The notes below the pieces were generated by a model. That model was not told the origin of the DNA. It did no database searches and was given only the letters and a program-made list of their open reading frames with translations. A stretch of 64,000 nt of DNA, from contig CAMXQV010000004.1 of assembly GCA_947245515.1 (NCBI GenBank), positions 1,167-65,166 on the forward strand. The letters are read 5' to 3'. The translations under genes and the position numbers were made by a program. Below are positions 1-22,189 of the stretch, in pieces; the first letter of the stretch is position 1; every line of letters starts with the position of its first letter. Origin of the DNA: an uncultured Clostridium sp. Lineage in GTDB: Bacteria; Bacillota; Clostridia; TANB77; CAG-508.

Positions 1-105
1 AACGGTAAGGAAAAAGGACAAGTTGTTCCTGAAAGTATTGAGATTAAAGGAGTTTTCTTGAGTACTAGAAATCCTGTTGTTAAATTAGGATTAGTAATTA
101 AATAA
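1..105 (+). CDS. 3' end of an unidentified CDS entering from the left window edge (...VFLSTRNPVVKLGLVIK*)
   Basis: Frame 1 is open from base 1 to TAA at 103-105 and is followed by a hairpin plus T-run. 34 aa is too short to assign a family. Confidence 0.35.
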   Translation, partial: NGKEKGQVVPESIEIKGVFLSTRNPVVKLGLVIK

Positions 106-118
106 ATAATAAAAATGT

Positions 119-156
119 AAGTCTTAAAAGTAAAATTTTAGGGCTTATTTTTTTGC
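119..156 (+). terminator. Rho-independent terminator
   Basis: AAGTCTTAAAA (119-129) pairs with TTTTAGGGCTT (136-146, two G-U pairs), then ATTTTTTTT. Confidence 0.55.
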
Positions 157-240
157 AGTTTTATATTAGAAAAGAGTTTTATTCTTTTAAAAGGTCTTTT
201 TTGGTTGATATATTAGTATTTATAAACATTTTATACACTT

Positions 241-280
241 CACTATGCTTTAGTGTTTACTCCACTATAGTGTAGTGTTT
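241..280 (+). repeat. Tandem ~20-bp direct repeat upstream of repL (iteron/operator-like)
   Basis: CACTATgctTTAGTGTTT followed by CACTATagtGTAGTGTTT. The junction CACTATAGTG is itself palindromic. It sits just 5' of the repL RBS. Confidence 0.45.
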
Positions 281-307
281 TATTTTAAATTTGAGGAGGT
301 TTTAATA

Positions 308-769
308 ATGGGAGTTGAATATATAGAAAAAACAAAAACATTAATTGGTACAAAAAGAAAAGAATTAATAGATAAAGAAACAGGTGAAATTATTGAAGTT
401 GATCAGATTACTAAAAAAGTATATGGTCAAAAGAATTTCTGGAAGTTATATTTAGGAGATTTCTTGCCAGTATTAGGAATTGTAGAAAGTAAACAGGTAG
501 ATATTTTAATATATATATTAGAAAATACACAGCCTAGTACAAATATGTTTGTGGGAACTTATAAAACAATTCAAAAGAATACACATACATCTGAAACTAC
601 TATTGCTAAAGTTATGAAAAAATTACAAAAGCAACAGTTCTTAAAGAAAATACAAAATGGACTTTGGCAAGTTAGTCCTAATATTATAATGAAAGGAAAC
701 GAAAATAAAAAGCAATTATTGCTTAGTTATTTTCGCACCGATGAATCTAATAAAAATAACCATAGATAA
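308..769 (+). CDS. repL: RepL-family plasmid replication initiator (winged-helix)
   Basis: LIDKETGEIIEVDQI...NFWKLYL...VDILIYILEN...TIAKVMKKLQKQQFLKK...PNIIMKG matches the small Firmicute RepL pattern (pSN2-type) as I recall it. A GAGGAGG RBS lies at 292-298 and the ATG at 308. Confidence 0.8.
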   Translation: MGVEYIEKTKTLIGTKRKELIDKETGEIIEVDQITKKVYGQKNFWKLYLGDFLPVLGIVESKQVDILIYILENTQPSTNMFVGTYKTIQKNTHTSETTIAKVMKKLQKQQFLKKIQNGLWQVSPNIIMKGNENKKQLLLSYFRTDESNKNNHR

Positions 770-974
770 TACTGTATATACAAGCTTAAACGGAAGTTTG
801 AAACCGAATGGGTTTCAAGGAGAGTAAGAAATACAATTGCAAGTGCAATTTTTTCTTGCTCTTTTTTTGAAATAAATTGAGAAATTAAATTTATTTCAAA
901 CCTAAAAAATTGTGAGTCACAAATTTTTAGGCAAAGGGGTGTGGGGAAAAAATTTATTTTCCCTGCCACACAGA

Positions 975-1012
975 TAAACTTTGTTTGTCTAGTGTGTTAG
1001 ACAAGTAAACTT
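975..1012 (+). other. Candidate MobV-type origin of transfer (oriT)
   Basis: Hairpin TTGTCTA (985-991) / TAGACAA (998-1004) with loop GTGTGT. TAGTGTGTTA is identical to the pMV158 nick region as recalled. It lies immediately upstream of the relaxase gene. Confidence 0.5.
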
Positions 1013-1038
1013 ATTTTGAGAAAGGAGCGTTGGAGCTT

Positions 1039-2226
1039 ATGAGTTATGCTATAGTAAGAAATGAGAAATTAACACGAGATAGAATAAATGGGAAGTGTAC
1101 CCATAATGATAGAAAAGCCAAAAATCATTCTAATAAAGATATCAATCCAACTAGAACACATTTAAATTATTATATAAAGAAAAATGAATATACCTATACA
1201 AAAGAATTTGATAAATATATAAAAGAAAACAATATAGAAGGACATATTAGAAGTAATAGCATAGTAATGTGCCAAATGATATTTACTTCTGATCAAGGTT
1301 TCTTTGATAGAATTGGAGAAGAAGAAACAAAAAGATATTTTGAAGAATGTTATAAATTTATTTGCAATTATAAAAATCTTGGCGAAAAGAATATAATTGC
1401 AGCAGTAGTACATTTAGATGAAGGAGCACTACATTTGCACTTAATGTTTGTTCCTATTGTTCATACAAAAGATAAAGAAGGGAAAAATATTGATAAAATA
1501 TGTGCAAGAGATTTTTGGAAAGGTCGAGATAGTTATAGAAAACTGCAAGATGCCTATTTCAATCATGTTAAGTCAAAAGGTTTTGATTTAGAAAGAGGAA
1601 TGTTTATTGAAGATACAGGAAGAAAACATTACACTATTGAAGAATATAAAAAGATTACAAATTATGATAATACAAAGAAAATTTTAAGCGAAATGAAATT
1701 AGAATTACCAAGTACACCTGATATTACAGATATTAAACTAAATAGGTTATCCAAAAAAAGAGATGAAAAAATATTAGAAGAAATTATAAATCCTAAAGAT
1801 GATTTGATTAAAGAATTATATAAAGATAACTTATCATTGCATAAAGAATTATCTAAACAATCTAAAATTATTGATGAGGCCCAAAAATACCAAAAAGAAC
1901 GAGATTCTATACTTGCTAATAATATAGCATTACATAATCAAGTTGAAAATATTAAAACAGAATATAAAGAAAAGGAATTTGATATAGAATGGAAATATAA
2001 AAGTAAAATAAAAAGTTTGGAAAAAGAAAATACTCATTTACACAAAGTAGTAGATAAATTTAAAGAAACTATTGGAAAATTCATAAAATGGATTTGTAAA
2101 AAGTTTGATATGGGTGTAGAAGATAACTTAATTAGAGATTTTGAAAAAGAAACTAGAACTTGTTTAGATGCAGAAAAACAAATTAAACATGAAGAAAGAG
2201 AAAAAGAATCGGAAATGGAATTATAA
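1039..2226 (+). CDS. mob: MobV (Mob/Pre, plasmid recombination enzyme) family relaxase
   Basis: N-terminus MSYAIVRNEKLT... and HLDEGALHLHLMFVPI (HxDE...HxH metal motif), with a coiled-coil C-terminal half. An AGGAG RBS lies at 1022-1026. Confidence 0.85.
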   Translation: MSYAIVRNEKLTRDRINGKCTHNDRKAKNHSNKDINPTRTHLNYYIKKNEYTYTKEFDKYIKENNIEGHIRSNSIVMCQMIFTSDQGFFDRIGEEETKRYFEECYKFICNYKNLGEKNIIAAVVHLDEGALHLHLMFVPIVHTKDKEGKNIDKICARDFWKGRDSYRKLQDAYFNHVKSKGFDLERGMFIEDTGRKHYTIEEYKKITNYDNTKKILSEMKLELPSTPDITDIKLNRLSKKRDEKILEEIINPKDDLIKELYKDNLSLHKELSKQSKIIDEAQKYQKERDSILANNIALHNQVENIKTEYKEKEFDIEWKYKSKIKSLEKENTHLHKVVDKFKETIGKFIKWICKKFDMGVEDNLIRDFEKETRTCLDAEKQIKHEEREKESEMEL

Positions 2227-2319
2227 TTAAGATAGTATAAAATTTATTTTGTTTTTATTGTAAAATAATAATGCTCATGCTAGAATAAAGTAGTATTTAT
2301 AAAGGAATGGAGAAATAAA

Positions 2320-3990
2320 ATGCATAAACTAATTTTAAAACAATTAAAAAAATATAAAATTGAATATATAATATTTTTTATATTTTATATGATAAACGTA
2401 ACATTTGCTTTATTAGAACCTGTAATATTTGGAAAAATATTAGATTCAATAATAAATAATGTAGGAAAAATAGATTTTGAAACAAAGAAAAATATAATAT
2501 TTTTGATAAGTGTCTTATTGGTACAATATATTACAAATTATATATATAGAAGAATTTTATTTCCAACTAGTAGAAAAGTAAAACAAGGAATTTTAAATAA
2601 TATATTAGAAAAACTAGAAAAAGCGAAAATAGACTTTTTTGATAAAACTGATAAAGGAAAGTTTGTTACATATATAATAAATGATATTACTTATATTTGG
2701 TCAATAATGAGTCATGGAACAATTGAGTTGATAAGATTGATATCATATACGGTTTTTGGTTTTATTTTTGCTATAAAATATGTTGATTTATCACTTGCAA
2801 TAGCTGTATTTGTAACATTTCCAATGTTTATATATTTTATATTTAAACAAAATGCTAAAGCTCAAAAATTGTTATATGAGAAAAAAGAAGAGGAAGCCAA
2901 ACTTTCGAAACACATAAACGATAGTTTTTGTGGATTTAGTGTAATAAAATCATATGTTACAGAGGAAGAAACATTAAATAAATTTAATGAAATAAATAAT
3001 GACTTAAAAAATAAAAATATTGATTACAATAAAATAACTTCAAGTATCAATTCAATAGTAACTTTTTTTCAAGGACTTGGATTTTCAATTTCTTGTATAT
3101 TTGGGTTATATTTAGTAGTAAATGGAAGTATTACGATAGGTTCATTTATTGCTTTTAATTCAATAATTCAAAAAGTAATGAAAGACTATTTATATGCGGG
3201 ATTTTTGGTAAAAAAAGCAAATATGATAAAAATAATATATAAAAGAATACAATTTTTGTACGATATAGAAACAAATACAGATGGTAATATTAAAATGCCA
3301 GAAAATGCTGATATACAAATAAACAATTTGAATTTTAAATATAACGGTGAAAAAGAAAATATATTAGAAAATATAAATTTAAGTATACCATCAGGTAGTT
3401 TCATAGGAGTATTAGGAAAAACTGGATCTGGAAAGACTACACTAGCAAATATACTTGCAAAGTTTTATGCTATTCCAAATGGAAAAATATTTTTTAATAA
3501 TATAGATACAAATGATATTGAAAGAAAATCATTTTATGAAAAATTTGCTTATGTTATGCAAGACGATTATATATATGATAATACAATACAACATAATATA
3601 GAACTATATAAAAGATATAACAAAAATGATATTAAAGATGCCGTTGAAAAAGCAGAGTTATTTGATACGATTGAAAAATTAGATAAAAAATATAATACTT
3701 TAATAGGTGATAATGGGATTAAACTATCAGGAGGACAAAAGCAAAGATTGATTTTATCTAGAAATATAGTAACAAATCCAAATATACTAATCATAGATAA
3801 TGGATTTACAGGTTTAGATATAGATACACGCAAAAAAGTAGTAGATAATTTGAATAATAGAAATAATAAAACAACTTTAGTTATAATCTCAAGTATGATG
3901 GAAGATATAAAAAATGCAGATAAAATATACAAATTAGAAAATAAAACACTAGTTGAGATGAATATGGAAGAGGAGGTATATGATGCTTAA
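2320..3990 (+). CDS. ABC exporter half-transporter (TMD-NBD), degenerate-site subunit
   Basis: Six predicted TM helices followed by an NBD. Walker A is GKTGSGKTT and the signature is LSGGQKQR. Walker B is ILIIDN (catalytic Glu replaced by Asn) and the H-loop His is replaced (VIISSMM). Confidence 0.85.
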   Translation: MHKLILKQLKKYKIEYIIFFIFYMINVTFALLEPVIFGKILDSIINNVGKIDFETKKNIIFLISVLLVQYITNYIYRRILFPTSRKVKQGILNNILEKLEKAKIDFFDKTDKGKFVTYIINDITYIWSIMSHGTIELIRLISYTVFGFIFAIKYVDLSLAIAVFVTFPMFIYFIFKQNAKAQKLLYEKKEEEAKLSKHINDSFCGFSVIKSYVTEEETLNKFNEINNDLKNKNIDYNKITSSINSIVTFFQGLGFSISCIFGLYLVVNGSITIGSFIAFNSIIQKVMKDYLYAGFLVKKANMIKIIYKRIQFLYDIETNTDGNIKMPENADIQINNLNFKYNGEKENILENINLSIPSGSFIGVLGKTGSGKTTLANILAKFYAIPNGKIFFNNIDTNDIERKSFYEKFAYVMQDDYIYDNTIQHNIELYKRYNKNDIKDAVEKAELFDTIEKLDKKYNTLIGDNGIKLSGGQKQRLILSRNIVTNPNILIIDNGFTGLDIDTRKKVVDNLNNRNNKTTLVIISSMMEDIKNADKIYKLENKTLVEMNMEEEVYDA

Positions 3991-5638
3991 TATAAAAAGT
4001 CTTATAAGCAAGTATAAATATAAATTTTTATTTGTCATCATATTAATGATAATAACATCATTAATTAATACTTTACTGCCATATATAATAAAACATGCAA
4101 TTTCTTTAGCTGAAAATGTAACATCATTTAATGATATATCAAGTAAAATATTAGGAATAGTTATTGCATATATGCTTCTTTCAATAATATGTGCTTTTTT
4201 AGAATATGTAAAATCTGTATTTTTAGCTAAAAATACAGAAGGACTAACATATGAAATCAGGGAAGAAGCTTATAAAAAGGTAATTAGTTTTAATATGGAT
4301 ACTTTTTCGAATATGCATATATCTACATTGATAACAAGAATGACTGCAGATATAAATAATATAGGAGATTTTATAGGTAGAATATTGCCAATGTTTATAA
4401 GTGCTGGAATATTTTTAATAGTGGTGCTTGGAGTAATGTGTTTTATAAATATTTATTTTGCATTGGTAATGGTTATATGTAGTCTAATATTGGTTATGGC
4501 ATTACTTAAATTAGGTAAAAAAATGGAATATTATAACAGAAAAAGTATAGAAAATACTGAAAAACTTAATAATTATTTTGGAGAAACATTTTCAGGAATA
4601 AATACAATAAATCTTTTTACTATTCAAAAAGAAAGAAAAGAAGAATTAGATAAGTATAATAAAGAGGAAACAGATATATCAAGAAATTATTTTACAGTAC
4701 AAAGTGCTTTAAAACCTGTAGAATCAATGACTAAATACTTAATAATTGCGATTATAATATATTTATGCATACAAGGGAAAGTAGCAGGAATTGATGTTGG
4801 GATTATTTATGTTGTTGTAAGCTATATAGATAAATTTTTTGAGCCATTAGGTCATATTTTATATCACTATGAAAATTTACAACAAGGAAGAGTTTCAATA
4901 AAAAGAATAGATGACCTATTACAAAAGAAAGAAAATATAGAGAATATTTATGAAGGAGAAAATACAGAAAAGTTAGAAGGAAATATAAGATTTAAAAGCG
5001 TTAATTTTTCATATATAGAAGGTAAACAAATTTTAAATGATGTAACATTTTCGATTAATAAAGGTGAGAAAGTTGCATTGGTTGGAGAAACAGGAGCAGG
5101 AAAAACAACAATTATAAATTTAATTTTAGGATTTTATAAAATAAATTCTGGAAATATATTATTTGATGGAAAAAATATGGATGATATATCATTGGAAAGT
5201 ATAAGAAAAAATGTATCATTTATACAACAAAGCCCATATATATTTGATGATACAGTAAAAAGAAATATTATAATAAATGATAATAATACTATTTCAGATG
5301 AAAAGATAATTGATATATTAAAGCAAGTTCAATTATATGATAAAATTAAAAGTTTTGAAAATGGTATATATGAAAAAGTAAAAGAAAGTTCTTTTTCAAA
5401 AGGAGAAAAGCAACTACTTGCTTTCGCTCGTGCAATTGCAAAAGAAACAAGTATATATATTTTTGATGAACCTACATCAAATATTGATATTGAAAGTGAG
5501 ATTCAATTAAAGAAAGTTATAGATAATTTATCTAAAGATTCAACAGTAATTATTATTGCACATAGACCTGCAACAATTGAAAATGTTGATAAAGTTTTAA
5601 AGGTTGAAGATGGGAAGATAGTACAACTAAAAGATTAA
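3980..5638 (+). CDS. ABC exporter half-transporter (TMD-NBD), consensus-site subunit
   Basis: Walker A is GETGAGKTT, Walker B is IYIFDEPTS, and the H-loop is IIIAHR. The signature is deviant (FSKGEKQ). It overlaps the upstream gene by 11 nt and has a GGAGG RBS. Confidence 0.85.
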   Translation: MMLNIKSLISKYKYKFLFVIILMIITSLINTLLPYIIKHAISLAENVTSFNDISSKILGIVIAYMLLSIICAFLEYVKSVFLAKNTEGLTYEIREEAYKKVISFNMDTFSNMHISTLITRMTADINNIGDFIGRILPMFISAGIFLIVVLGVMCFINIYFALVMVICSLILVMALLKLGKKMEYYNRKSIENTEKLNNYFGETFSGINTINLFTIQKERKEELDKYNKEETDISRNYFTVQSALKPVESMTKYLIIAIIIYLCIQGKVAGIDVGIIYVVVSYIDKFFEPLGHILYHYENLQQGRVSIKRIDDLLQKKENIENIYEGENTEKLEGNIRFKSVNFSYIEGKQILNDVTFSINKGEKVALVGETGAGKTTIINLILGFYKINSGNILFDGKNMDDISLESIRKNVSFIQQSPYIFDDTVKRNIIINDNNTISDEKIIDILKQVQLYDKIKSFENGIYEKVKESSFSKGEKQLLAFARAIAKETSIYIFDEPTSNIDIESEIQLKKVIDNLSKDSTVIIIAHRPATIENVDKVLKVEDGKIVQLKD

Positions 5639-5693
5639 GATATTAATATGAGAGAAAATCCAGTATCATAAAGTCAATCTTAATAATTCAAAA

Positions 5694-5738
5694 AGTCAAT
5701 GCACAGTATTTTTATAATACAGTGCATTGACTTACTTT
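5694..5738. terminator. Hairpin terminator between convergent genes
   Basis: AGTCAATGCACAGTAT (5694-5709) pairs with ATACAGTGCATTGACT (5717-5732) with one mismatch. Confidence 0.6.
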
Positions 5739-5761
5739 TAATAATAAAATTCTATGTTTAT

Positions 5762-6922
5762 CTATTTCCAATACATACTGCTTAATTCTTTCAATTTTAT
5801 TTTTAAATCTTCTAGTTGATTATCAGAATAATTGTTTCTTAATACTCTAGCTTTTTCAGACCATTCTTTGAACTGCTTTTCTTTAAATTCCTTTGAATGA
5901 TTATAATGTAATCCATGCATTCTTTTATATTCTCTGTTATATTCCTTTAGAATTAAGCTATTTTTGACTTTTTCTTTTTGTTTATTTAATGCTCCAATTT
6001 GTTTACAAGTTTTTCCAGTATTTGAGTACAAGTTATTGCAATATTTTTGATTATTTCTTCCTTTTTGATTTGGATTATTACTAGTAGTGGTGGGTATAAA
6101 TAATCTACCACAATTTTCACATTTGTTTATAGTAAAGTTGTTTTGAATAACTTTAAATAACTCAAACCTAATTTGTTCTTCTGTATTTTGTAATTCATAA
6201 ACTTCTTCTGCTACAATATGTTTTTCTTTCATTATTTCTACAATTCTTTCTACATCTAATCTTCTTTCCTCAAAAGATAATTCTGTATCACAAATATATT
6301 TTGTTTTGAATTTAGTATCAAGAAAAAGAGCGTGAGTAGGTTTTGTATTAACATAGTGTATATCAAATACTCTTTTTGTTTCATATAAGAATAGTTTTTC
6401 AGGCACACTTAAATTTCTAACAAGAGAGTTATTAGAATATTTGCTAATCAATTCTAGTCTTTCTTTTAAATCCATTTTTTTCTCTATTAAATTTTCTATT
6501 AATAAATCTCTCATAGTTTCAAAAAATTTCATATATTCATTATGTTTTTTATCTGATATTTTATCTATTTCTTGAACCCATTTCATAAGTAAAATCTGTG
6601 TAGTATATTCATCTTCTTCTAATTCACGAAATATATCACTAGGATAATATTTTGAGTTTTCTATAAAAACACCAATTTGAGATTTGAACAATAAATCTGA
6701 TCTAAAGATTTTTGTATTATAGGTTTTTATAATTATATCTATTAGTACTTGTGTGTAAAAATGTGTATATGGAGAAAATTTTAGACATGCTCTAACAATT
6801 TGAAACATTTTTAAGAAACAATCTATCTTTTCATCTTCAGAATCAGTTTCTTTAGAATAACATACAAGTTCTATAAGCTGTGTGTACATTGCTTTCAATT
6901 TATCAAAATCTTCATAACTCAT
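5762..6922 (-). CDS. Hypothetical protein with a C-terminal zinc-ribbon-like motif (resembles the clostridial DUF6076 family)
   Basis: CENCGRLFIP...YCNN...GKTCKQIGALNKQKEKVKNSLILKEYNREYKRMHG is a pattern I associate with DUF6076 proteins found next to recombinases. This was not verified. The N-terminus is probably longer (see finding). Confidence 0.55.
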   Translation of the reverse strand: MSYEDFDKLKAMYTQLIELVCYSKETDSEDEKIDCFLKMFQIVRACLKFSPYTHFYTQVLIDIIIKTYNTKIFRSDLLFKSQIGVFIENSKYYPSDIFRELEEDEYTTQILLMKWVQEIDKISDKKHNEYMKFFETMRDLLIENLIEKKMDLKERLELISKYSNNSLVRNLSVPEKLFLYETKRVFDIHYVNTKPTHALFLDTKFKTKYICDTELSFEERRLDVERIVEIMKEKHIVAEEVYELQNTEEQIRFELFKVIQNNFTINKCENCGRLFIPTTTSNNPNQKGRNNQKYCNNLYSNTGKTCKQIGALNKQKEKVKNSLILKEYNREYKRMHGLHYNHSKEFKEKQFKEWSEKARVLRNNYSDNQLEDLKIKLKELSSMYWK

Positions 6923-7121
6923 TATAGCAAATTCATATAATTTATCTCCAATATTATATTCAAAATCACCAATAGCACCAAAATATTCTCCGAGTATTTT
7001 TTATTATAATTTTATTATTGTTAAGCGTGAAATTAGTTATCATATCAATATTTCCTCCATTTTGAAAATAGAATATAGCTATTTCAATTTTTAAGTTATC
7101 TATAGACTTACAAAAATCTAT

Positions 7122-7149
7122 TTACAACACTATTTTAGCATCTTATAAT
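7122..7149 (+). promoter_or_regulatory. Sigma-A-type promoter candidate
   Basis: TTACAA, a 16-nt spacer, then TATAAT (7144-7149). Confidence 0.35.
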
Positions 7150-7384
7150 GATTTTATCAAGATAGAAAATAGCATTTCAAGATATCTATTTTCTATTTGC
7201 ACATAGTACATTGAAAATTGAATAGCAAGTTACAAGCACAGATAATGAAACTTTCGTCTGGCTAACGTGATGTAAAGGGGCGATTCTCTAAAAAGAGTAA
7301 TGAGGGCAAATCTCATATGGGTATAATTTACCACTTGTAACTTTAAAAATTAAAAGTAATATTTTTAAACTTTTAATAATAGTA

Positions 7385-7591
7385 TTGAAAAGAAGGAAGG
7401 TGAGAATTTTGAAAAAGAGTTTGAATATTACATTTATTAATCCTAATACAGAAGAACAGATAGTACAAGCTATGTCTGGAGTTCTTGCATATAATTTAGC
7501 TGAGAATGATGAAAACATAAAATTTTGCTACAACAATTCAAATACTTATCAAAATTCTCACGAGGAAATAGAAGATGAATTAGAATTGTAA
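7385..7591 (+). CDS. Small hypothetical protein (start uncertain)
   Basis: ORF only (non-ATG start in the track). Acidic C-terminus, no recognisable domain. Confidence 0.3.
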   Translation: MKRRKVRILKKSLNITFINPNTEEQIVQAMSGVLAYNLAENDENIKFCYNNSNTYQNSHEEIEDELEL

Positions 7592-7744
7592 AGAATGGAA
7601 AAAATTAAACAATTTTGTTAAAAATATTGATTATAAAATCACAGTATGATACAATACAAATGTTCGTGGCAATATATTAACAAAAAATAGATAACTATTT
7701 AGAAATTTAAAAGCGAATAATTAATTTAAATGGAGGTATGTAAT

Positions 7745-8239
7745 ATGGGAACAAATTATTATTTTACACCAAAAAAATTTGAATTGAATAGAGTGAAAAA
7801 GTTACATGAAGATTATTCTTCTAAGATGGACAAACTTTTAAATGATTATATAAAATCATATAACAAACTATGTAATGAAATGTCAAAAGAAACAAATGAT
7901 TTATTTGATAATGAAGAATTGCCAGGCTATAAAGATTGGTATAACTATATGCATTTAGCAGAAATAGAATATCCTGAATTACATATATGTAAAATAAGTA
8001 TGGGGTGGAAGCCACTATTTCAAGCAACAAAATTTTATAATAGTGTGCAAGAACTGAAAGATTTTTATTATAAAAATAAAGATAGAATAATAATAAAAGA
8101 TGAATATGGAGAAGAACAAGGTATAGATGAATTATTTGAATTTATAGATATTAAATATAAAGATAAAAAAAGTCAATCTCATACAGATGCTTACAAAGAC
8201 CAACAAGGATATGAGTGGGTATCGAATAATTTTTCTTAA
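7745..8239 (+). CDS. Hypothetical protein
   Basis: A GGAGGT RBS at 7733-7738 lies 6 nt before the ATG at 7745 (MGTNYYF...). No family recognised. Confidence 0.5.
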   Translation: MGTNYYFTPKKFELNRVKKLHEDYSSKMDKLLNDYIKSYNKLCNEMSKETNDLFDNEELPGYKDWYNYMHLAEIEYPELHICKISMGWKPLFQATKFYNSVQELKDFYYKNKDRIIIKDEYGEEQGIDELFEFIDIKYKDKKSQSHTDAYKDQQGYEWVSNNFS

Positions 8240-8301
8240 ATTTGTTTTGAAATATAGATAAAATTAGTAAAATGTAGTATAATAGAAAGAGAGGTTGGTT
8301 T

Positions 8302-8743
8302 ATGCTAAAATTACATTTAGATAATTGTTGCTATAATAGACCATTTGATGATTTAAGACAAGAAAAAATCAAGTTAGAAGCTCGGAGCAATAGAAACAAT
8401 TATTGATATGTATTTAAATAAAGAAATAAAGATATATACAAGCAGAGCTATTGACTATGAAATAGATAATATTTCTGCTGGGAATAAAAAGAGACAAATT
8501 GAAGATTTATATGATGGTTTAGAAATAGAGAAGATACCATATTCATATGAAATAAAGGAAAGAGTACAGGAATTAAAAAGATTTAATATTCATTATATGG
8601 ATGCATATCATATAGCTTATGCTGAAAGCAAAAATTTGAATTATTTTATAACAGTTGATAAACAATTAATAAATGCTTGCAAAAGAGCAAATTTAGAATT
8701 AAAGGTAGTAAATCCTATGGAATTTATAATGGAGGTGATATAA
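8302..8743 (+). pseudogene. PIN-domain ribonuclease (type II toxin-like), disrupted by a +1 frameshift near 8378-8386
   Basis: Frame 1 reads MLKLHLDNCCYNRPFDDLRQEKIKLEA... to TGA at 8404-8406. Frame 2 continues ...AIETIIDMYLNKEIKIYTSRAIDYEI...MDAYHIAYAE...FITVDKQLI. Together they make one PIN domain with its conserved acidic residues. Confidence 0.7.
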
Positions 8744-8947
8744 ATGGCAGTAACAGTTAAAGATTTAGAGAAAATTAGACAAGAAGGTCTTAAAGCACTA
8801 AGAGAAAAATTAGGGCCAATAGGTATGATAAAATTTATACAAATGTATAGTGATGGTGAAGGAGACTATACTGAAGAAAGAAGAGAAAAATTAAAAGATT
8901 TAAAAGAAGAAGATTTGGAAGCTTTTTTAAGTGAAGAGTTGAATTAG
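8744..8947 (+). CDS. Small partner protein of the PIN gene (putative antitoxin)
   Basis: The ATG directly abuts the PIN stop. GLKALREKLGPIGMIKFIQMYSDGEGDYTEER matches the small proteins I recall paired with NRPFDD-type PIN proteins. Confidence 0.55.
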   Translation: MAVTVKDLEKIRQEGLKALREKLGPIGMIKFIQMYSDGEGDYTEERREKLKDLKEEDLEAFLSEELN

Positions 8948-8981
8948 CCCAATATTAGACATAGACTCTATTTGCGGAAAA

Positions 8982-9026
8982 GAAAAAACTATTCTCAAAA
9001 AGAGAGTAGTTTTTTCTTGCTTTTTT
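8982..9026 (+). terminator. Rho-independent terminator
   Basis: GAAAAAACTATTCTC pairs with GAGAGTAGTTTTTTC (one G-U pair), then TTGCTTTTTT. Confidence 0.6.
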
Positions 9027-9098
9027 GCAACTGATATGCTAAAATGTAACAGAACGAAAACAAAGTTACAGATAATAAAAACAAGAAAGAGTGATGTT

Positions 9099-10745
9099 AT
9101 GAAAATTGCAGCATATGCAAGAGTTTCAACTGAAAAAGAATCACAAGTTGAATCATTTGAAAAGCAAATAGAATTTTTTAATGAATTTACAAAAAAGAAT
9201 GGTTATGAATTGTACAAGCTATATGCAGATGAAGGAATATCAGGAAAGCAAATAAAACACAGAAAGCAGTTTCAACAAATGATGCAAGATGCTAAGCATA
9301 AGAAATTTGATAAAGTAGTTGTAAAAGATGTAAGCCGTTTTGCAAGAAATACAGTAGATTTATTGCAAAGCATAAGAGAACTTAAATCTTATGGAATTGA
9401 AGTAGATTTCTTAAACAATGGAGAAATAATGGAAGGTGGATCTGAGTTTATACTAACCATTTTAGGGGCAATGGCACAGCAAGAAAGTGCAAATATGTCT
9501 AAAAGGGTTAAATTCGGAAAAGACATCACTGCAAAAAAAGGAAGAGTTCCTAACATTGTATTTGGATATGACAAGATACCAGATGAGAGATACATGTTAA
9601 AAATAAATGAAGAAGAAGCAAAAATTGTAAAAGAAATATTTGAAAGCTATGTATATAAAGGAATTGGAACAACAAAAATTGCTTGGGACTTAAATGATAG
9701 AGGAATAAGAACGAAAAAAACAAAATCAAAATGGGTACAAACCTCTATCGTAAGAATGCTTAAAAATCCAATTTATATCGGAAGAGTAACCAATAAAAAA
9801 TCAGAAGTAACAGACTTTATAACAGGAACAAGAAAAGATTTACCAGAAGAAGAATGGATAACAGTAGAAAGACCAGAAATGAGAATTATATCAGATGAGT
9901 TATTTAATAGAGCACAAGAAATACTAGCTCAAAGGTCAAACGAATTTAAACTAAACAATAAAAGAGAAAAAACAGAATATGTATTTAGTACACTTATCTA
10001 TTGCAAACATTGTGGATATTCATTTAGAAGAATAAGAAGAAAATACACAGAAGACGGCAAAGAATATATAAGATGGGTATGTAGTGGAAGAAATTCAATG
10101 GGTGTAAATCATTGTCCTAATACAACTGTTATTGATGAAGAAGAACTTTTAAATGCTATAAAAGAATATTTAAAAAGCATCATTTCAAATAAAAAGAACT
10201 TTATGAAAGCAGTTGAGAAAGAATTTGAAAAGATTACAAAATTAAGAGAAGCGGGTGAAAGAAGCGAAGAAAGTCTTTTACAAGAGATAGAAAAGGTAAC
10301 AGTAAAAAAACAAAAGTATATGGAGATGTTCCAAAACGAAGTAATCAATATACAAGAATTAAAAAAATACACTAATCCATTAAATGAAGATGTAGCAAGA
10401 TTAGAGCGAGAGCTAAAACTAATCACATCAGAAATAAAAGAAAAAGATGTATTAGAAAAAGAACTATCAAAAACAATTAGCACAGTAGATGATATTTTAA
10501 ACAACAAAACAATTACAAATGCTATGTTAAAAACAATCATAGATGTAATAGAAGTAGATAGTGACTCAAATGTAGAAGTAAGACTAAAATTATTAAATGA
10601 AATAGGAAGTACACCATCAGTTATAACTAATTTTAATGAAATCGAAACCAATGTAGGGGCGAGCATTGCTCGTCCGCAAAACGAAAATAATGACATTAAT
10701 TCAACCGTTACGAAAAGTAACAACAGTACACAAAGATGTTTCTGA
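9099..10745 (+). CDS. Large serine recombinase (resolvase/invertase N-terminal domain plus recombinase and zinc-ribbon domains)
   Basis: MKIAAYARVSTEKESQ...SFEKQ (catalytic Ser motif), VVVKDVSRFARN, and a CKHCGYSF...WVCSG...HCPN zinc ribbon with a coiled-coil tail. The ATG at 9099 is preferred over the 9036 track start. The stop lies inside spoIIID-derived DNA. Confidence 0.9.
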   Translation: MKIAAYARVSTEKESQVESFEKQIEFFNEFTKKNGYELYKLYADEGISGKQIKHRKQFQQMMQDAKHKKFDKVVVKDVSRFARNTVDLLQSIRELKSYGIEVDFLNNGEIMEGGSEFILTILGAMAQQESANMSKRVKFGKDITAKKGRVPNIVFGYDKIPDERYMLKINEEEAKIVKEIFESYVYKGIGTTKIAWDLNDRGIRTKKTKSKWVQTSIVRMLKNPIYIGRVTNKKSEVTDFITGTRKDLPEEEWITVERPEMRIISDELFNRAQEILAQRSNEFKLNNKREKTEYVFSTLIYCKHCGYSFRRIRRKYTEDGKEYIRWVCSGRNSMGVNHCPNTTVIDEEELLNAIKEYLKSIISNKKNFMKAVEKEFEKITKLREAGERSEESLLQEIEKVTVKKQKYMEMFQNEVINIQELKKYTNPLNEDVARLERELKLITSEIKEKDVLEKELSKTISTVDDILNNKTITNAMLKTIIDVIEVDSDSNVEVRLKLLNEIGSTPSVITNFNEIETNVGASIARPQNENNDINSTVTKSNNSTQRCF

Positions 10746-10878
10746 ACGATTAAGAAAAATAAATCCTACTCTAGCAAAAGAAGTAAGAAAAATACTAGAT
10801 GAAAATAAAGCAGAAAGACATATAAGAGGAGGAATGGCGACAAAAATGAAATATAGTAAGTTAATAAAGAATAACTAA
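10714..10878 (+). pseudogene. spoIIID: spoIIID, 3' segment only (split or truncated gene)
   Basis: TVHKDVSERLRKINPTLAKEVRKILDENKAERHIRGGMATKMKY aligns with B. subtilis SpoIIID STVHKDLTERLPEINPDLANEVKEILDYHKSIRHLRGGEATKLKY (recalled). The N-terminal ~35 aa are missing. Confidence 0.8.
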
Positions 10879-18097: not shown

Positions 18098-21000
18098 ATG
18101 TTAGCACAAGAAGTTATGGTAAAAGAGATAGAGAAATATTTAACTATGTTAATTACATATGCAAAATCAAATTCTAGAATGAATTTAACAGATATAGGGA
18201 TTGTTAGTGAAAATTTCTTTAGTGAATTATTAAATAAGCTATATGGATACAAACTGATTAATGCAAATTCAGAAGAAAAAAATTTTGCTGGAATAGATTT
18301 GATAGATAGAGAAAATAAAATATGCTATCAAGTAACATTAGATAGTGATGCAGATAAAGTACAAAGTACGATAAGCATGTTTATAAAGAAAGAATATTAC
18401 AAGGATTTTCAACATTTGTTTGTATTAGTAATAGATGATCCAAAGAGATATAATAAAAAATTTGATACTGAAGGTAAGTTTGTATTTGACAAGAATAAAG
18501 ATATTATATTTCCATTAAAACAAATCATTGATGATATTAGAAATGTTAGAGATTTAGATAAATTGAATAAGATATATAGCTTTTTTAGAAGCTCATTTTA
18601 TTATGAAAATTTTGATAGAGGGTATGAATGGTATAAAAATCAAAATGAGAAGAACATTTTAAATTTAGGTTGCAGATATAATAAAGAAATTAACATTGAT
18701 ACTACAATTGTAAAAAAAATGGCAGTATTTTTAAAAGAAGAAGAACGAATGAATACAATGGCACATGAATTGAAGGAACTTATTATAAAGTTAGTACAAA
18801 ATTCTGGATTATTTCAAGAGAAAAAAATCATAGAGAAAGCTAAAGAATTATTTAAAAACATTATGTTAGGTAATTATAGTTGGGATAAAGTAAATGAATT
18901 TTTAAAAGAATTAGATGAGGCTTTATATAAGGAGTTTGAAAGACTTAACAATTCATCAATAAATTATGATATATATAATAAAATATCAGATATCAGAAGT
19001 TTAAATGAAGATTTAATTGAAGGGTTATCTTATTTATTTAAAAAAGTAATGATTATAACAGGGGAAATGGGCATTGGAAAATCTCACTTAATAGCTAATT
19101 GGATTGATAAATATTGCATACCAAAACAAATAAATGCAATTTTATTGTTAGGACAGATGATGAATGAAGCTAATTCATTTACATTACAAATGAAAAATGA
19201 ATTAGGTATAGAAGAAAACTTTGAGAAATTTCTAGCAGCACTAGATGCAATAGGAAGAGAGAAAAAAGTCATAGTACCATTTTTTATTGATGCATTAAAT
19301 GAAAGCCAATACTATGAAAAATGGGCAGATAACATAAATGGAATAGTAAATGAATTTTCAAAGTATAAAAATATAAAACTAATTCTAACAATAAAGGAAG
19401 ATTTTAAAGGAAAATGCTTACCTAATAATATGGATCAGGAAAATGTTATAACAGTTTTACATAGGGGATTTGCAGAAAATACATATGAAGCCATGAATGA
19501 GATATTTTCATATTATAAAGTTGAACTACCATTATTTCCAGTCATAAATGAAACATATTCAAATCCTCTATTCTTAATTACAATGTGTAAATGTATAAAT
19601 AAAAATAGAATCAACTTATTACTACAAGATTATTCAGATTTTAACTTGATTTTTGATGAGTATTTAAAAAATATAAATTATGAGATATCTAAAAAACTGA
19701 AATATTCAGAAAAAGAAAATTTAGTGGTACAAATTTTAGATATTGTAGCAAAATATATGGTAGATAATAAAATACAGTATATAACTAAAATTAATTTTTT
19801 AAAAATTATCAAAGATCATTTATCACTATATAATATTGCTCCTATGCATATATTGGAATATTTTATTTCCGAAAACATTTTATATAAATCAATAGATTAT
19901 AAAACAAGAGAGGAGATAGTATATTTTACATATGAAAAATACAATAGTATAATTAAATCTAAGTATATATTAAAAGATTTTCATGACAGAGACAGTATTA
20001 TAGAAAATCAGAAATTAAAAGATATGTTTGATTATGAAAATGAATTATATGATGGAAATATTATAGAAAACTTGCTTATATACATAGGTAATAATTTTGG
20101 AATAGAATTATATGATATATTGGATTATAAATTAGACAAATATAGAAATGTTATAAGAATATATATGAGAAGCTTAATGTGGAGAAAAAAAGATAATTTT
20201 GATATAGAAGGAAAATTTAAAGAATTTTTTGATTATGTAGTAGCTAGAGAACATGACTTTTACTATAATTATGTGGAATTATTATTTACATGTGCAGTAA
20301 TTGGAAGTAGTCCATTTAATATATATAAAATTAATCAAAAATTATTAGATATGTCTTTAATAGAAAGAGATAGTAGTTGGACAATAATGCTAGATGAGCA
20401 TATAGAAGACTCAATACAAAGAATATTAGATTATTGTTTTAGAGCTGATTTAAGTGGAATGCATAAAGATAATAGACTTATGCTATCTATAACTCTATCA
20501 TGGATGTTAAGTAGTTCAAATAGAAAATTAAGAGATTTAGCAACAAAAGCTTTAGTAATTACATTGACAAATAATTTAGAAACAATGGTGGATATCATTC
20601 AAAATTTTAAGGATGTTAATGATATGTACATATTAGAAAGAATATATGGTGCATGTTATGGTGCAATATTAAGGAGTAGTAATTTAGATAAATTAAATGA
20701 ACTAGTTGAAAAGATTTATTCTGAAATATTCAATAAAGAAGAGGTAATAGCTAATGTTGTCATTAGAGATTATGCAAGGCAAATTATACTTTATGCTAAG
20801 TATAAGAAAATAGAAATGTCTTTTAATATTGAAAGAATTAATCCACCATATAAGAGTAAATGGTATGAAGAAATTCCAACTAATGAGCAAATTAAAAAAT
20901 ATGACATTAACTATGATGATGCTAAAGATAAAAAGTATCTATATGCACAATACAGGATAGTAAGCTCAATGATTACTGAATATGGAAGAGGTACAGGAGG

Positions 21001-22189
21001 ATATGGTGATTTTGGAAGATATGTGTTTGAAAGGTTAGTTAGACCGTGGAAATATAAATTTGATAATCCTCAAGATTTAAGTAACATAGTTATAAAAAGA
21101 GTATTTGATATGGGATATGATGCAAAAATATTTGGAAATTATGATATGAATGTTAGCCCACATGACAGACATAATAATTGTACTGAACGAATTGGAAAAA
21201 AATATCAGTGGATAGCTACATATGAATTATTAGCCAAGTTACAAGATAAATATAAGATTTTTACAGAGGTATATCCAGAAGAGGAAGAGCTAGATTTTAA
21301 TAGTAATATTTATTTAAATAGTAAATATGAAAAGACAGAAGTACTCGAAGATATTAGATATAAAGAAGATGTATATCAATTTTTAGATTTTGGTTATTTA
21401 AGAAATATAGATGTTACAAGTACATTAACAAAGCTTGAGAGAAAAGAGTATGAAATTTTAGATATAGTAGATAAAGAATGGATAAATGAAGATATAGATG
21501 TTGAGAAATATATTGAAAACTCAAATGAATATATTTCTTTGTGTGCATGTTATCATTATAGAAGTGATGCCATAGAATTGAAAGATATTACATCAAATTT
21601 TGATAGACATAGAAATAGTATTTCTTTAACAGTAATGTATCATGCATGTTTAGTTAATAAGGAATATAAAATAATACAAAAGGATATGGAAGGATTTATG
21701 GATTATAATATTCATTCTAATTTTGATGTCTTATTAAGAGAATATGTATGGTCTAAGTATTATGATGAAGCAGTTAAATATTTAGAGAAAAAGTCCAAAA
21801 GTTGCAATATATATCCTGTGTTTTCTAACTATTTATTTGAGCCATTATATGATAATTCAATAGAAAATGCAATTTCTATGTTTGTTCCATCAAAAATGTT
21901 GATAGAAGAATTAAAACTTAATCAAAGAGAGGATGGATATTGGTATAATGAAGATGGAATATTAGTATGTTATGATAATAAACTAAAAGGACAAGAAAGT
22001 AATTTTATCTTTAATAAGGATATTTTATATAATTATTTAGAAAAGAAAAACTTTAAATTAATATGGAAAGGCTACATTGATAAAAGTAACAAAAGAGAGT
22101 TTAGAGATTATCACTTTATAATTTTGAAAGAAGATGATAAATACAAAATTAAAAAAGAAAATGAGACAAGAGGGACATTAACTTTATAG
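18098..22189 (+). CDS. 1363-aa protein with an N-terminal SMEK-like domain, a P-loop STAND-type NTPase and a long helical C-terminal region (candidate defence NTPase)
   Basis: aa ~25-115: NLTDIGIVSENFFSELLNKLYGY...NFAGIDLID...ICYQVT. Walker A is GEMGIGKS (nt 19061-19084). Walker B is VPFFIDALNE (nt 19274-19303). About 950 further aa are mostly helical. Confidence 0.75.
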   Translation: MLAQEVMVKEIEKYLTMLITYAKSNSRMNLTDIGIVSENFFSELLNKLYGYKLINANSEEKNFAGIDLIDRENKICYQVTLDSDADKVQSTISMFIKKEYYKDFQHLFVLVIDDPKRYNKKFDTEGKFVFDKNKDIIFPLKQIIDDIRNVRDLDKLNKIYSFFRSSFYYENFDRGYEWYKNQNEKNILNLGCRYNKEINIDTTIVKKMAVFLKEEERMNTMAHELKELIIKLVQNSGLFQEKKIIEKAKELFKNIMLGNYSWDKVNEFLKELDEALYKEFERLNNSSINYDIYNKISDIRSLNEDLIEGLSYLFKKVMIITGEMGIGKSHLIANWIDKYCIPKQINAILLLGQMMNEANSFTLQMKNELGIEENFEKFLAALDAIGREKKVIVPFFIDALNESQYYEKWADNINGIVNEFSKYKNIKLILTIKEDFKGKCLPNNMDQENVITVLHRGFAENTYEAMNEIFSYYKVELPLFPVINETYSNPLFLITMCKCINKNRINLLLQDYSDFNLIFDEYLKNINYEISKKLKYSEKENLVVQILDIVAKYMVDNKIQYITKINFLKIIKDHLSLYNIAPMHILEYFISENILYKSIDYKTREEIVYFTYEKYNSIIKSKYILKDFHDRDSIIENQKLKDMFDYENELYDGNIIENLLIYIGNNFGIELYDILDYKLDKYRNVIRIYMRSLMWRKKDNFDIEGKFKEFFDYVVAREHDFYYNYVELLFTCAVIGSSPFNIYKINQKLLDMSLIERDSSWTIMLDEHIEDSIQRILDYCFRADLSGMHKDNRLMLSITLSWMLSSSNRKLRDLATKALVITLTNNLETMVDIIQNFKDVNDMYILERIYGACYGAILRSSNLDKLNELVEKIYSEIFNKEEVIANVVIRDYARQIILYAKYKKIEMSFNIERINPPYKSKWYEEIPTNEQIKKYDINYDDAKDKKYLYAQYRIVSSMITEYGRGTGGYGDFGRYVFERLVRPWKYKFDNPQDLSNIVIKRVFDMGYDAKIFGNYDMNVSPHDRHNNCTERIGKKYQWIATYELLAKLQDKYKIFTEVYPEEEELDFNSNIYLNSKYEKTEVLEDIRYKEDVYQFLDFGYLRNIDVTSTLTKLERKEYEILDIVDKEWINEDIDVEKYIENSNEYISLCACYHYRSDAIELKDITSNFDRHRNSISLTVMYHACLVNKEYKIIQKDMEGFMDYNIHSNFDVLLREYVWSKYYDEAVKYLEKKSKSCNIYPVFSNYLFEPLYDNSIENAISMFVPSKMLIEELKLNQREDGYWYNEDGILVCYDNKLKGQESNFIFNKDILYNYLEKKNFKLIWKGYIDKSNKREFRDYHFIILKEDDKYKIKKENETRGTLTL

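Follow-up and report, generated by a model that had tools for sequence, protein, structure and literature searches.

The DNA analyzed here, a stretch of 64,000 nucleotides (nt) from contig CAMXQV010000004.1 of an uncultured Clostridium sp. (referred to as the window), harbors the right-hand part of a plasmid-like, mobilisable element that is inserted into spoIIID, the gene of a mother-cell regulator of sporulation. The element measures 10,749 bp from core to core and divides spoIIID into two halves lying 10.75 kb apart. Joining of these halves at the attachment (att) sites yields an in-frame SpoIIID protein of 88 amino acids (aa), which aligns over its full length with intact SpoIIID proteins at up to 91% identity. 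It appears reasonably probable that the element, inserted by its own large serine recombinase (LSR), is excised in the mother cell, and that the regulator gene is rebuilt in this way. A first-pass annotation, made from the letters alone, had proposed that spoIIID is split by a serine-recombinase element. This proposal was borne out, since both halves, an attL and an attR site at the element ends, and in-frame rejoining were found.

The 3′ half of spoIIID is located in the window itself. The forward-strand frame from position 10720 to 10878 (TTVHKDVSERLRKINPTLAKEVRKILDENKAERHIRGGMATKMKYSKLIKNN, followed by the stop codon) encodes a product matching model positions 34–80 of 82 of the Pfam family SpoIIID (PF12116; E 1.1e-22) and showing 64% identity to SpoIIID of Bacillus subtilis (E 1.7e-16). 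By the PF12116 match, the segment 10714–10878 is unambiguously related to SpoIIID, and the earlier reading of the codons up to 10878 as the C-terminal part of this protein was confirmed. The preceding gene had been described as that of an LSR terminating inside spoIIID-derived DNA, which also holds: its product features the domains PF00239 (Resolvase), PF07508 (Recombinase), and PF13408 (Zn_ribbon_recom), all above the cut-offs, it matched a PHROG integrase with an E value of 5e-119, and its TGA stop codon (10743–10745) lies 13 nt past the crossover core. The exact LSR protein of the window, in its integrated form, was present on 12 contigs. Downstream of spoIIID, protein matches identified YabG (Peptidase_U57), Veg, a SipL/LysM protein, and YunB, in agreement with the gene order read initially, and yabG, sipL, and yunB beside the split gene are intact.

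The 5′ half of spoIIID (residues 1–43) resides just left of the window start and is absent from the window because the latter begins right of the attL core. This core, GTACA, is placed ~19–27 nt left of window base 1, which corresponds to base 9694 of L009, the core occupying L009 positions 9670–9674. Over the first 0.7–2.0 kb of the window, nine independent contigs match it at 100% identity; they extend to the left through attL, where the spoIIID 5′ half and then a CmpB-family gene follow. Likewise, contigs sharing the exact RepL protein of the element feature, 200 bp upstream of the RepL gene, an open reading frame (ORF) of 80 aa with a SpoIIID Pfam match. This ORF (L009 9556–9798) is chimeric and reads MKQISLIEERAIQLAHYIIDSKDTVRGAATKFGISKSTVHKDV followed by TLKNGKEKGQVVPESIEIKGVFLSTRNPVVKLGLVIK and a stop codon. 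The two spoIIID halves cover PF12116 positions 3–42 (5′) and 34–80 (3′). The first-pass annotation had advised looking for a 5′ fragment beside attL at the opposite element end, where its absence, together with an intact second copy, would have marked a relic; in the contigs identical to the window start, this fragment is present. The missing N-terminal part had been estimated at about 35 aa; its absence from the window was correct, its length is 43 residues.

For placement of the crossover, ~100 attL and attR junctions from related loci were aligned. GTACA is the sole sequence that attL and attR share in every pair, and since the two sites of L018, L025, and L045, for example, differ on both flanks of this motif, the crossover is placed inside GTACA. 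Homology between the interrupted locus and an empty site (L095) also ends at the core. The alignment with intact orthologues and the empty site, suggested earlier as a means of finding the crossover dinucleotide, hence confined it to a 5-bp core. The attR consensus is ...ACCGTTACGAAAAGTAACA-[A/T]CN-GTACA-YAARGAYGT, followed by host sequence, and the attL consensus is host ...AARTCN-ACN-GTACA-CA[A/C]NGANGT-AACACTNNNGAACGGTA.... Flanking GTACA, the two arms of the element are imperfect inverted repeats of each other (ACCGTT..GTAAC / GTAAC..AACGGT), and the reconstructed attP (ACCGTTACGAAAAGTAACAACAGTACACAAGGATGTAACACTAAAGAACGGT) is an imperfect dyad of 52 bp with its centre in GTAC/AC. An attP of ~52 bp with GTAC/AC at its centre would be as expected of an LSR site. 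The predicted junctions after excision are ...TCCAAGTCTACAGTACACAAAGATGTTTCTGAACG... for attB and ...GAAAAGTAACAACAGTACACAAGGATGTAACACTAAAGAACGG... for attP. Within spoIIID, the core falls into the S-T-V-H-K-D codons, which, by analogy with B. subtilis SpoIIID, presumably encode the recognition helix of the helix-turn-helix.

In a scan of one genome per species, LSR relatives were detected in 145 genomes, and the best 80 loci were examined. In these 80 of the 145, the recombinase is full-length and 85–95% identical to that of the window. All hosts of the relatives are uncultured gut Clostridia (human, mouse, rabbit, chicken, and ruminants), including Clostridium sp. CAG:343 and two complete chromosomes of ~1.6–1.7 Mb; complete chromosomes of the group are OZ007016.1 and OZ006978.1. 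At 78 of the 80 loci, a spoIIID 3′ half with the same start residue was found at the end of the LSR gene, and wherever the flank suffices, the 5′ half lies 3.5–11.5 kb upstream; element sizes in the family range between 4.7 and 11.5 kb. A pattern search of metagenome contigs for left junctions revealed at least 120 further attL sites, each preceded by a spoIIID 5′ half. Deep metagenomes carrying the element include SRR27313487, SRR17071712, and ERZ14651247. The element family occupies the same spoIIID site in more than 100 species. Among the loci examined, L032 (1177–12393) features a recombinase gene followed by a second P′ arm (an attP-like junction) in place of the spoIIID 3′ half, both chimeric tails being truncated; the second P′ arm indicates that two elements apparently lie in tandem.

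The closest intact SpoIIID (P0001) was found on two contigs (L095 and L096), directly before yabG and veg. Starting at the core, L095 shows 99.9% and L096 99.4% identity to the interrupted locus L023, and a chimera (P0242) with the N-terminal half of the P0001 species was present in a third sample, so that a sister species exists in both the empty and the interrupted state. The window species is documented in the interrupted state only: its chimera was detected on 35 contigs (exact protein P0241) and the rebuilt SpoIIID on none.

Pairwise LSR identities were not correlated with those of host genes (Spearman −0.07 for YabG, 0.03 for SipL, and 0.10 for Veg), and hosts whose YabG proteins are only 51–60% identical carry LSRs with 96–97% identity. 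This uncoupling of LSR and host divergence shows that the family spreads horizontally, and vertical inheritance or ancient domestication was rejected on the same grounds. The cargo is mosaic across the elements. The position of attB in the most conserved stretch of the conserved spoIIID gene would explain the host range.

In 71 of 71 interrupted alleles, the spoIIID 3′ half, which lacks its own promoter and start codon, has remained intact; the ratio of synonymous to non-synonymous differences is 2.3 in frame versus 0.10 and 0.03 off frame. This bears on the idea that the split copy is a pseudogene, the work being done by an intact second spoIIID elsewhere in the genome. The search for a second SpoIIID-like sequence was confined to the 64-kb window, where none was detected, and a copy elsewhere in the genome is therefore conceivable. 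Furthermore, at L040 (5459–5602) a recombinase 92% identical to that of the window is followed by a divergent SpoIIID-like 3′ piece (52% identity, TTVHLDVTKRLLILSPITARKVQKIL...), which may represent either a paralogous target or a relic undergoing decay. However, spoIIID is usually a single-copy gene, numerous species retain the two halves in intact and conserved form, conservation extends to the host promoter region preceding the 5′ half, and the recombinase is full-length at all 80 loci. A dead relic is accordingly regarded as highly improbable.

Regarding the control of the recombinase, a sigma-A-type promoter precedes its gene and is conserved across 73 distinct upstream regions. The first-pass annotation had reasoned that an element inside spoIIID cannot depend on SpoIIID for its own excision, with which a promoter of this type is consistent. 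Directly after the −10 box, an inverted repeat, TGTAAC (9045–9050) N14 GTTACA (9065–9070), is kept in ~70 loci. It resembles the att half-sites (GTAAC...AACGG), and this likeness suggests that the recombinase may bind its own promoter. The intrinsic terminator in front of the promoter presumably shields the recombinase gene from upstream transcription, as deduced from its position. SprA (9dxh) is the nearest full-length solved structure, aligning over residues 12–493 with an E value of 1.7e-13. An orthologue of SpoIVCA or SprA was rejected in view of this distant match and of scores far below the cut-offs for the NCBIfam families CcrB, XisF, and CcrC. Outside the family, the most similar recombinase (46% identity over 92%) is encoded on MT838016.1, a human faecal 'Bacteriophage sp.' record of 6.4 kb; small LSR elements of this type may appear in virus-like-particle preparations. 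Within the window LSR gene, a GC-rich palindrome (GGGCGAGCA-T-TGCTCGTCC, 10657–10675) is inserted in frame into the segment that codes for the C-terminal region of the protein (NVGASIARPQ). Similar GC-rich insertions of 21 or 24 nt, also in frame, were observed in the tail ORF near attL in L036, L021, L025, L044, L084, and L089. These palindromic insertions may constitute a tiny insertion sequence in a genome of 25% GC.

In 24 complete elements, the only universal genes are those of the LSR and of a small protein designated orfX. With the exception of a single locus, the latter is encoded on the LSR strand; it precedes the LSR gene by 155 bp to ~4 kb, and its upstream region is conserved. No Pfam, PHROG, or NCBIfam family was assigned to orfX, which gave sub-threshold matches only, and its homologues form 1078 clusters, all unnamed. 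Universal in the complete elements, orfX is considered the candidate recombination directionality factor. Upstream of orfX, a CATA/AATA-type −10 box like that of the host spoIIID promoter was noticed, a motif that is not discriminating in AT-rich DNA. To decide whether orfX or the chimeric tail is the partner of the recombinase, correlated divergence was examined; that of the LSR was not correlated with that of orfX or of the tail (Spearman 0.19 and 0.14, no signal), the elements being mosaic. AlphaFold models were poor for both small proteins, with a predicted local distance difference test (pLDDT) score of 64 for orfX and of 60 for the chimera.

The insertion also gives rise to the chimera, composed of SpoIIID residues 1–43 and a tail of 37 aa encoded by the element. 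Frame and stop codon of the tail are kept in 27 of 29 distinct attL sites, insertions of 21 and 24 nt staying in frame. Variation in the tail is concentrated at third codon positions, with synonymous to non-synonymous differences of 1067:1295 in frame versus 368:1986 and 194:2055 off frame, and conservation drops sharply right after the tail stop codon, where the terminator hairpin follows. Judged by this codon pattern, the tail is under purifying selection. The chimeric proteins represent more than 120 distinct clusters at 90% identity. Just inside the P′ arm (window 16–24), the motif GGACAAG was observed, which occurs as GRACAAGT in most elements and codes for the tail residues G-Q-V; it fits the B. 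subtilis SpoIIID-box consensus WWRRACAR-Y, a match that could be due to chance. In the host spoIIID promoters of L025, L045, L087, L089, L094, and others, a 15-bp inverted repeat (CCCCCATATGAATAC ... GTATTCATATGGGGG) is located ~60–20 nt before the start codon. It spans a −10-like box (GAATACAAT) and the ribosome-binding site, shows compensating changes between species, and is degenerate in the window species. This repeat could block translation of read-through transcripts or act as an operator.

Selection on the tail raises the question of whether the chimera replaces SpoIIID, the element providing a substitute C-terminal domain that would make excision unnecessary. The helix-turn-helix region is kept up to the recognition helix, and the large number of distinct chimera clusters together with protein-level selection would suit such a role. 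However, the tail is shortened in ~20% of the metagenome attL sites and truncated in L032, the native 3′ half is intact everywhere, and the structure model is poor. Moreover, the C-terminal basic region of B. subtilis SpoIIID takes part in DNA binding. Replacement of SpoIIID by the chimera is therefore considered very improbable.

According to the account favored here, the 10.75-kb element has inserted via its LSR into the GTACA core of the recognition-helix codons and would be kept integrated in the germ line, i.e., in the vegetative cell and the forespore. The recombinase would be expressed constitutively from its sigma-A-type promoter, and a small directionality factor, for which orfX is the best candidate, would turn it to attL × attR excision in the mother cell. 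The chimeric SpoIIID(1–43)–tail protein, made from the host's spoIIID promoter, may assist in this step. Excision would restore spoIIID in the mother-cell chromosome, which is discarded in any case, so that a conserved attB and a broad host range could be exploited without loss of the host's spores. We infer that excision takes place during sporulation and in the mother cell only, and spore formation in carriers probably depends on it. A bolder variant, to which we give little credence, assigns the role of developmental trigger to the chimera: driven by the mother-cell-specific spoIIID promoter, it would be either the directionality factor itself or a SpoIIID-like activator of orfX. In that case, the switch would be self-extinguishing, as excision destroys the chimeric gene and creates spoIIID, and it would no longer be paradoxical that an element resides in the regulator gene on which excision of other such elements depends.

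Several results weigh against mother-cell excision. The rebuilt SpoIIID and the attP-form recombinase of the window species were absent among 15 billion proteins, an absence that is weak evidence because assemblies report the majority state only. A pattern specific for attP gave no match in Joint Genome Institute (JGI) metagenome contigs or in IMG/VR, which is uninformative on rare excision. No sporulation sigma promoter was confidently assigned to orfX: in a motif scan, the strict form matched only the site from which it was derived, and the relaxed form matched 24 times versus 17 expected. A frameshift just upstream of the KFGISKST codons was present in the spoIIID 5′ half of 6 of 120 metagenome attL sites (L116, L123, L129, L133, L183, and L207); these may represent assembly errors or real decay in some lineages. 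Because the family spreads horizontally, the intact 3′ halves may reflect nothing but recent insertion. The hosts are uncultured, their sporulation being presumed, and the shortened tails as well as the restriction of the second-copy search to the window also count on this side.

These points lend themselves to the main rival explanation, a selfish insertion for which spoIIID is simply a landing site of broad host range. Carriers would then be non-sporulating gut variants that have lost sporulation permanently or by a rare reversible switch, and excision would serve transfer only. The uncoupled element and host phylogenies, the presence of a MobV relaxase and RepL, and the polymorphic sister species would be expected in this case, as would the missing attP and rebuilt gene and the frameshifted 5′ halves. 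On the other hand, the window species was seen only interrupted (35 contigs versus 0) and is effectively fixed, yet its yabG, sipL, and yunB genes are intact, and the promoterless 3′ halves have remained so in every one of the 71 alleles. An in-frame tail under purifying selection, followed by a terminator, is difficult to reconcile with transcription from the spoIIID promoter being of no consequence. Finally, with at least 145 species carrying the family, a trait serving transmission would have to be lost very often. Selfish insertion without developmental excision is therefore deemed possible, albeit rather unlikely.

The features of the element and of the adjoining spoIIID fragment are compiled in the following table.

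Coordinates of the features identified in the window (position 1 is the first base of the 64,000-nt stretch).
Feature	Position	Strand	Evidence and remarks
Right-hand 10,730 bp of the ~10,749-bp element	1–10730	+	Contigs identical to the window start reach attL
End of the chimeric ORF, last 34 codons and stop	1–105	+	L009 translation; the P′ arm has its outer end at bases 1–7 (AACGGTA)
Terminator-like hairpin	117–156	+	13-bp stem and U run; −16.8 kcal/mol, z −2.84, equalled by 0 of 200 shuffles
RepL plasmid replication protein, cargo	308–769	+	PF05732, E 4e-26; true start 308
MobV-family relaxase	1030–2226	+	PF01076, E 1e-42; NCBIfam MobV 143 bits vs. cut-off 100
Two ABC exporter genes, cargo	2320–3990 and 3980–5638	+	ABC_membrane and ABC_tran domains
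DUF6076 protein, accessory	5762–6922	−	PF19553, E 2e-15; in 10 of 24 complete elements
Predicted multi-stem structured element upstream of orfX	7228–7342	+	28 predicted pairs, 7 with compensatory double changes, 15 variants
orfX, 60 aa	7409–7591	+	TTG start after ribosome-binding site GGTGAG; in 24 of 24 complete elements
169-aa ORF, cargo	7730–8239	+	No family at threshold (Pfam, PHROGs, NCBIfam)
PIN-domain toxin	8408–8743	+	PF01850, E 3.7e-5; in a subset of elements
67-aa ORF adjoining the PIN toxin, cargo	8744–8947	+	Likely toxin–antitoxin pair
Intrinsic terminator before the recombinase gene	8980–9018	+	17-pair stem and T run; conserved in ~70 loci
Sigma-A-type promoter of the recombinase gene	9017–9070	+	TTGCTT 9017–9022, 17-nt spacer, TGc-TAAAAT 9037–9045
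Large serine recombinase, 548 aa	9099–10745	+	Three LSR domains; true start 9099
attR	10701–10756	+	P arm ACCGTTACGAAAAGTAACAACA (to 10725), core GTACA 10726–10730, B′ arm CAAAGATGTTTCTGAACG...
spoIIID 3′ half, residues V39 to N88 and stop	10726–10878	+	PF12116 positions 34–80

Among the cargo, the RepL gene shows 69–72% nt identity to small Bacillus RepL plasmids, the MobV relaxase occurs in 14 of the 24 complete elements, and the ABC exporter pair was found only in the element of the window species among the loci compared. The structured element of ~115 nt, which is conserved, sits between the DUF6076 gene and orfX and is closed by the stem AAGTTACAAG/CTTGTAACTT; no Rfam match was obtained even at E ≤ 1. 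It could act as a new structured RNA leader of orfX or, once the DNA is mobilised, as its single-strand origin. Six element proteins were scanned against PHROGs, and no phage genes besides the integrase were detected. The element ORFs include no type IV secretion or coupling-protein genes, and no phage or plasmid record resembling the whole element was found. A prophage or prophage remnant was rejected, as structural, packaging, and lysis phage genes and a similar phage record are lacking. The combination of a MobV relaxase without conjugative apparatus and an integration module points to an integrative mobilisable element or integrated plasmid. The skin-like architecture assumed in the first-pass annotation is thus retained as far as a recombinase-bearing element splitting a sporulation gene is concerned; unlike skin, the element is mobilisable and plasmid-like, not prophage-like. 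Apart from the element, the window contains, 7 kb downstream of spoIIID, an ORF of 1363 aa (18098–22189, forward strand), whose counterpart in L003 has a SMEK_N Pfam match.

SpoIIID, together with sigma-E, switches on excision of the skin element in B. subtilis and in C. difficile, and an element inside spoIIID accordingly needs a different trigger. If mother-cell excision applies, DNA rearrangement would occur one step earlier in the mother-cell cascade than in any studied case. Family members are small, are reduced to two conserved genes and the att sites, move horizontally, and occur in no fewer than 145 uncultured species of the gut. For a considerable group of gut anaerobes, sporulation and hence transmission may hinge on a mobile element. 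In carriers, genome surveys will call spoIIID missing or a pseudogene. The recombinase, the defined attB and attP sites, and the candidate directionality factor form a compact, testable module. What possibly sets the family apart from known elements is its chimeric tail, together with the requirement for control independent of SpoIIID.

Compared with known systems, the skin element of B. subtilis resides in sigK, measures 48 kb, and encodes the recombinase SpoIVCA, which is transcribed by sigma-E and SpoIIID in the mother cell. The present element resembles it in the location of the recombinase gene at the element end beside the 3′ gene fragment and in the in-frame rejoining at a short core. 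It differs in its housekeeping-type LSR promoter, its size of 10.7 kb, the lack of phage genes, and the distance of its LSR from the Bacillus enzymes. SPbeta, inserted in spsM, is an active phage with the constitutive LSR SprA and the sporulation-controlled directionality factor SprB. Like SPbeta, the spoIIID element is mobile and presumably developmental at the same time; the target of SPbeta, however, is a polysaccharide gene and not a regulator, and sequence similarity is low.

Previously described intervening elements interrupt sigK, spsM, spoVFB, spoVR, gerE, cotJC, and yabG (PMC5595907, PMC5025042). In skinCd, located in sigK of Clostridioides difficile, the recombinase CD1231 is constitutive, and excision is directed by CD1234, a small mother-cell-specific factor that requires SpoIIID and sigma-E for its activation (PMC5025042). 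Both skinCd and the present element carry an LSR and reside in a gene for a mother-cell sporulation regulator; both recombinases appear to be constitutive, as suggested here by the sigma-A-type promoter, and in both a small separate protein is expected to provide direction and cell-type specificity, for which orfX is a candidate. In contrast, the target here is spoIIID and not sigK, so that a control circuit of the CD1234 type cannot apply, and skinCd is a prophage remnant, whereas the spoIIID element is a mobilisable MobV/RepL element moving between species. In Bacillus cereus ATCC 10987, gerE is interrupted by the gin element, which comprises 28.6 kb and three recombinase genes and acts through GirC and GirX; its excision was shown experimentally (PMC5595907). 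As a non-phage element in a very small (74-aa) mother-cell transcription-factor gene, relying on a serine recombinase and a small accessory factor, it is similar to the present element with its candidate factor; gerE, however, acts at the end of the cascade and spoIIID near its start, and excision of the latter's element is deduced.

The first-pass annotation knew of no described spoIIID element. No description of the present family was found in the literature, in which the only spoIIID record found is that of Galperin et al. 2022; this record does list one such element, a 64.7-kb 'skin-like' element in spoIIID of Ruminiclostridium cellulolyticum H10 (Ccel_3110/Ccel_3179; recombinase Ccel_3111; att sites at 3,646,124 and 3,710,868 of CP001348.1; Table S3), which is covered by one sentence and one table row and was not analyzed. 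The target is the same and the break point nearly identical, the 5′ fragment comprising 42 codons there and 43 here including the shared core. In R. cellulolyticum, the recombinase gene is located at the 5′ end on the opposite strand, whereas in the present family it occupies the 3′ end, is co-directional, and overlaps spoIIID. With 4.7–11.5 kb versus 64.7 kb, the family described here is much smaller than the R. cellulolyticum element, non-phage, mobilisable, differently laid out, and far more widespread.

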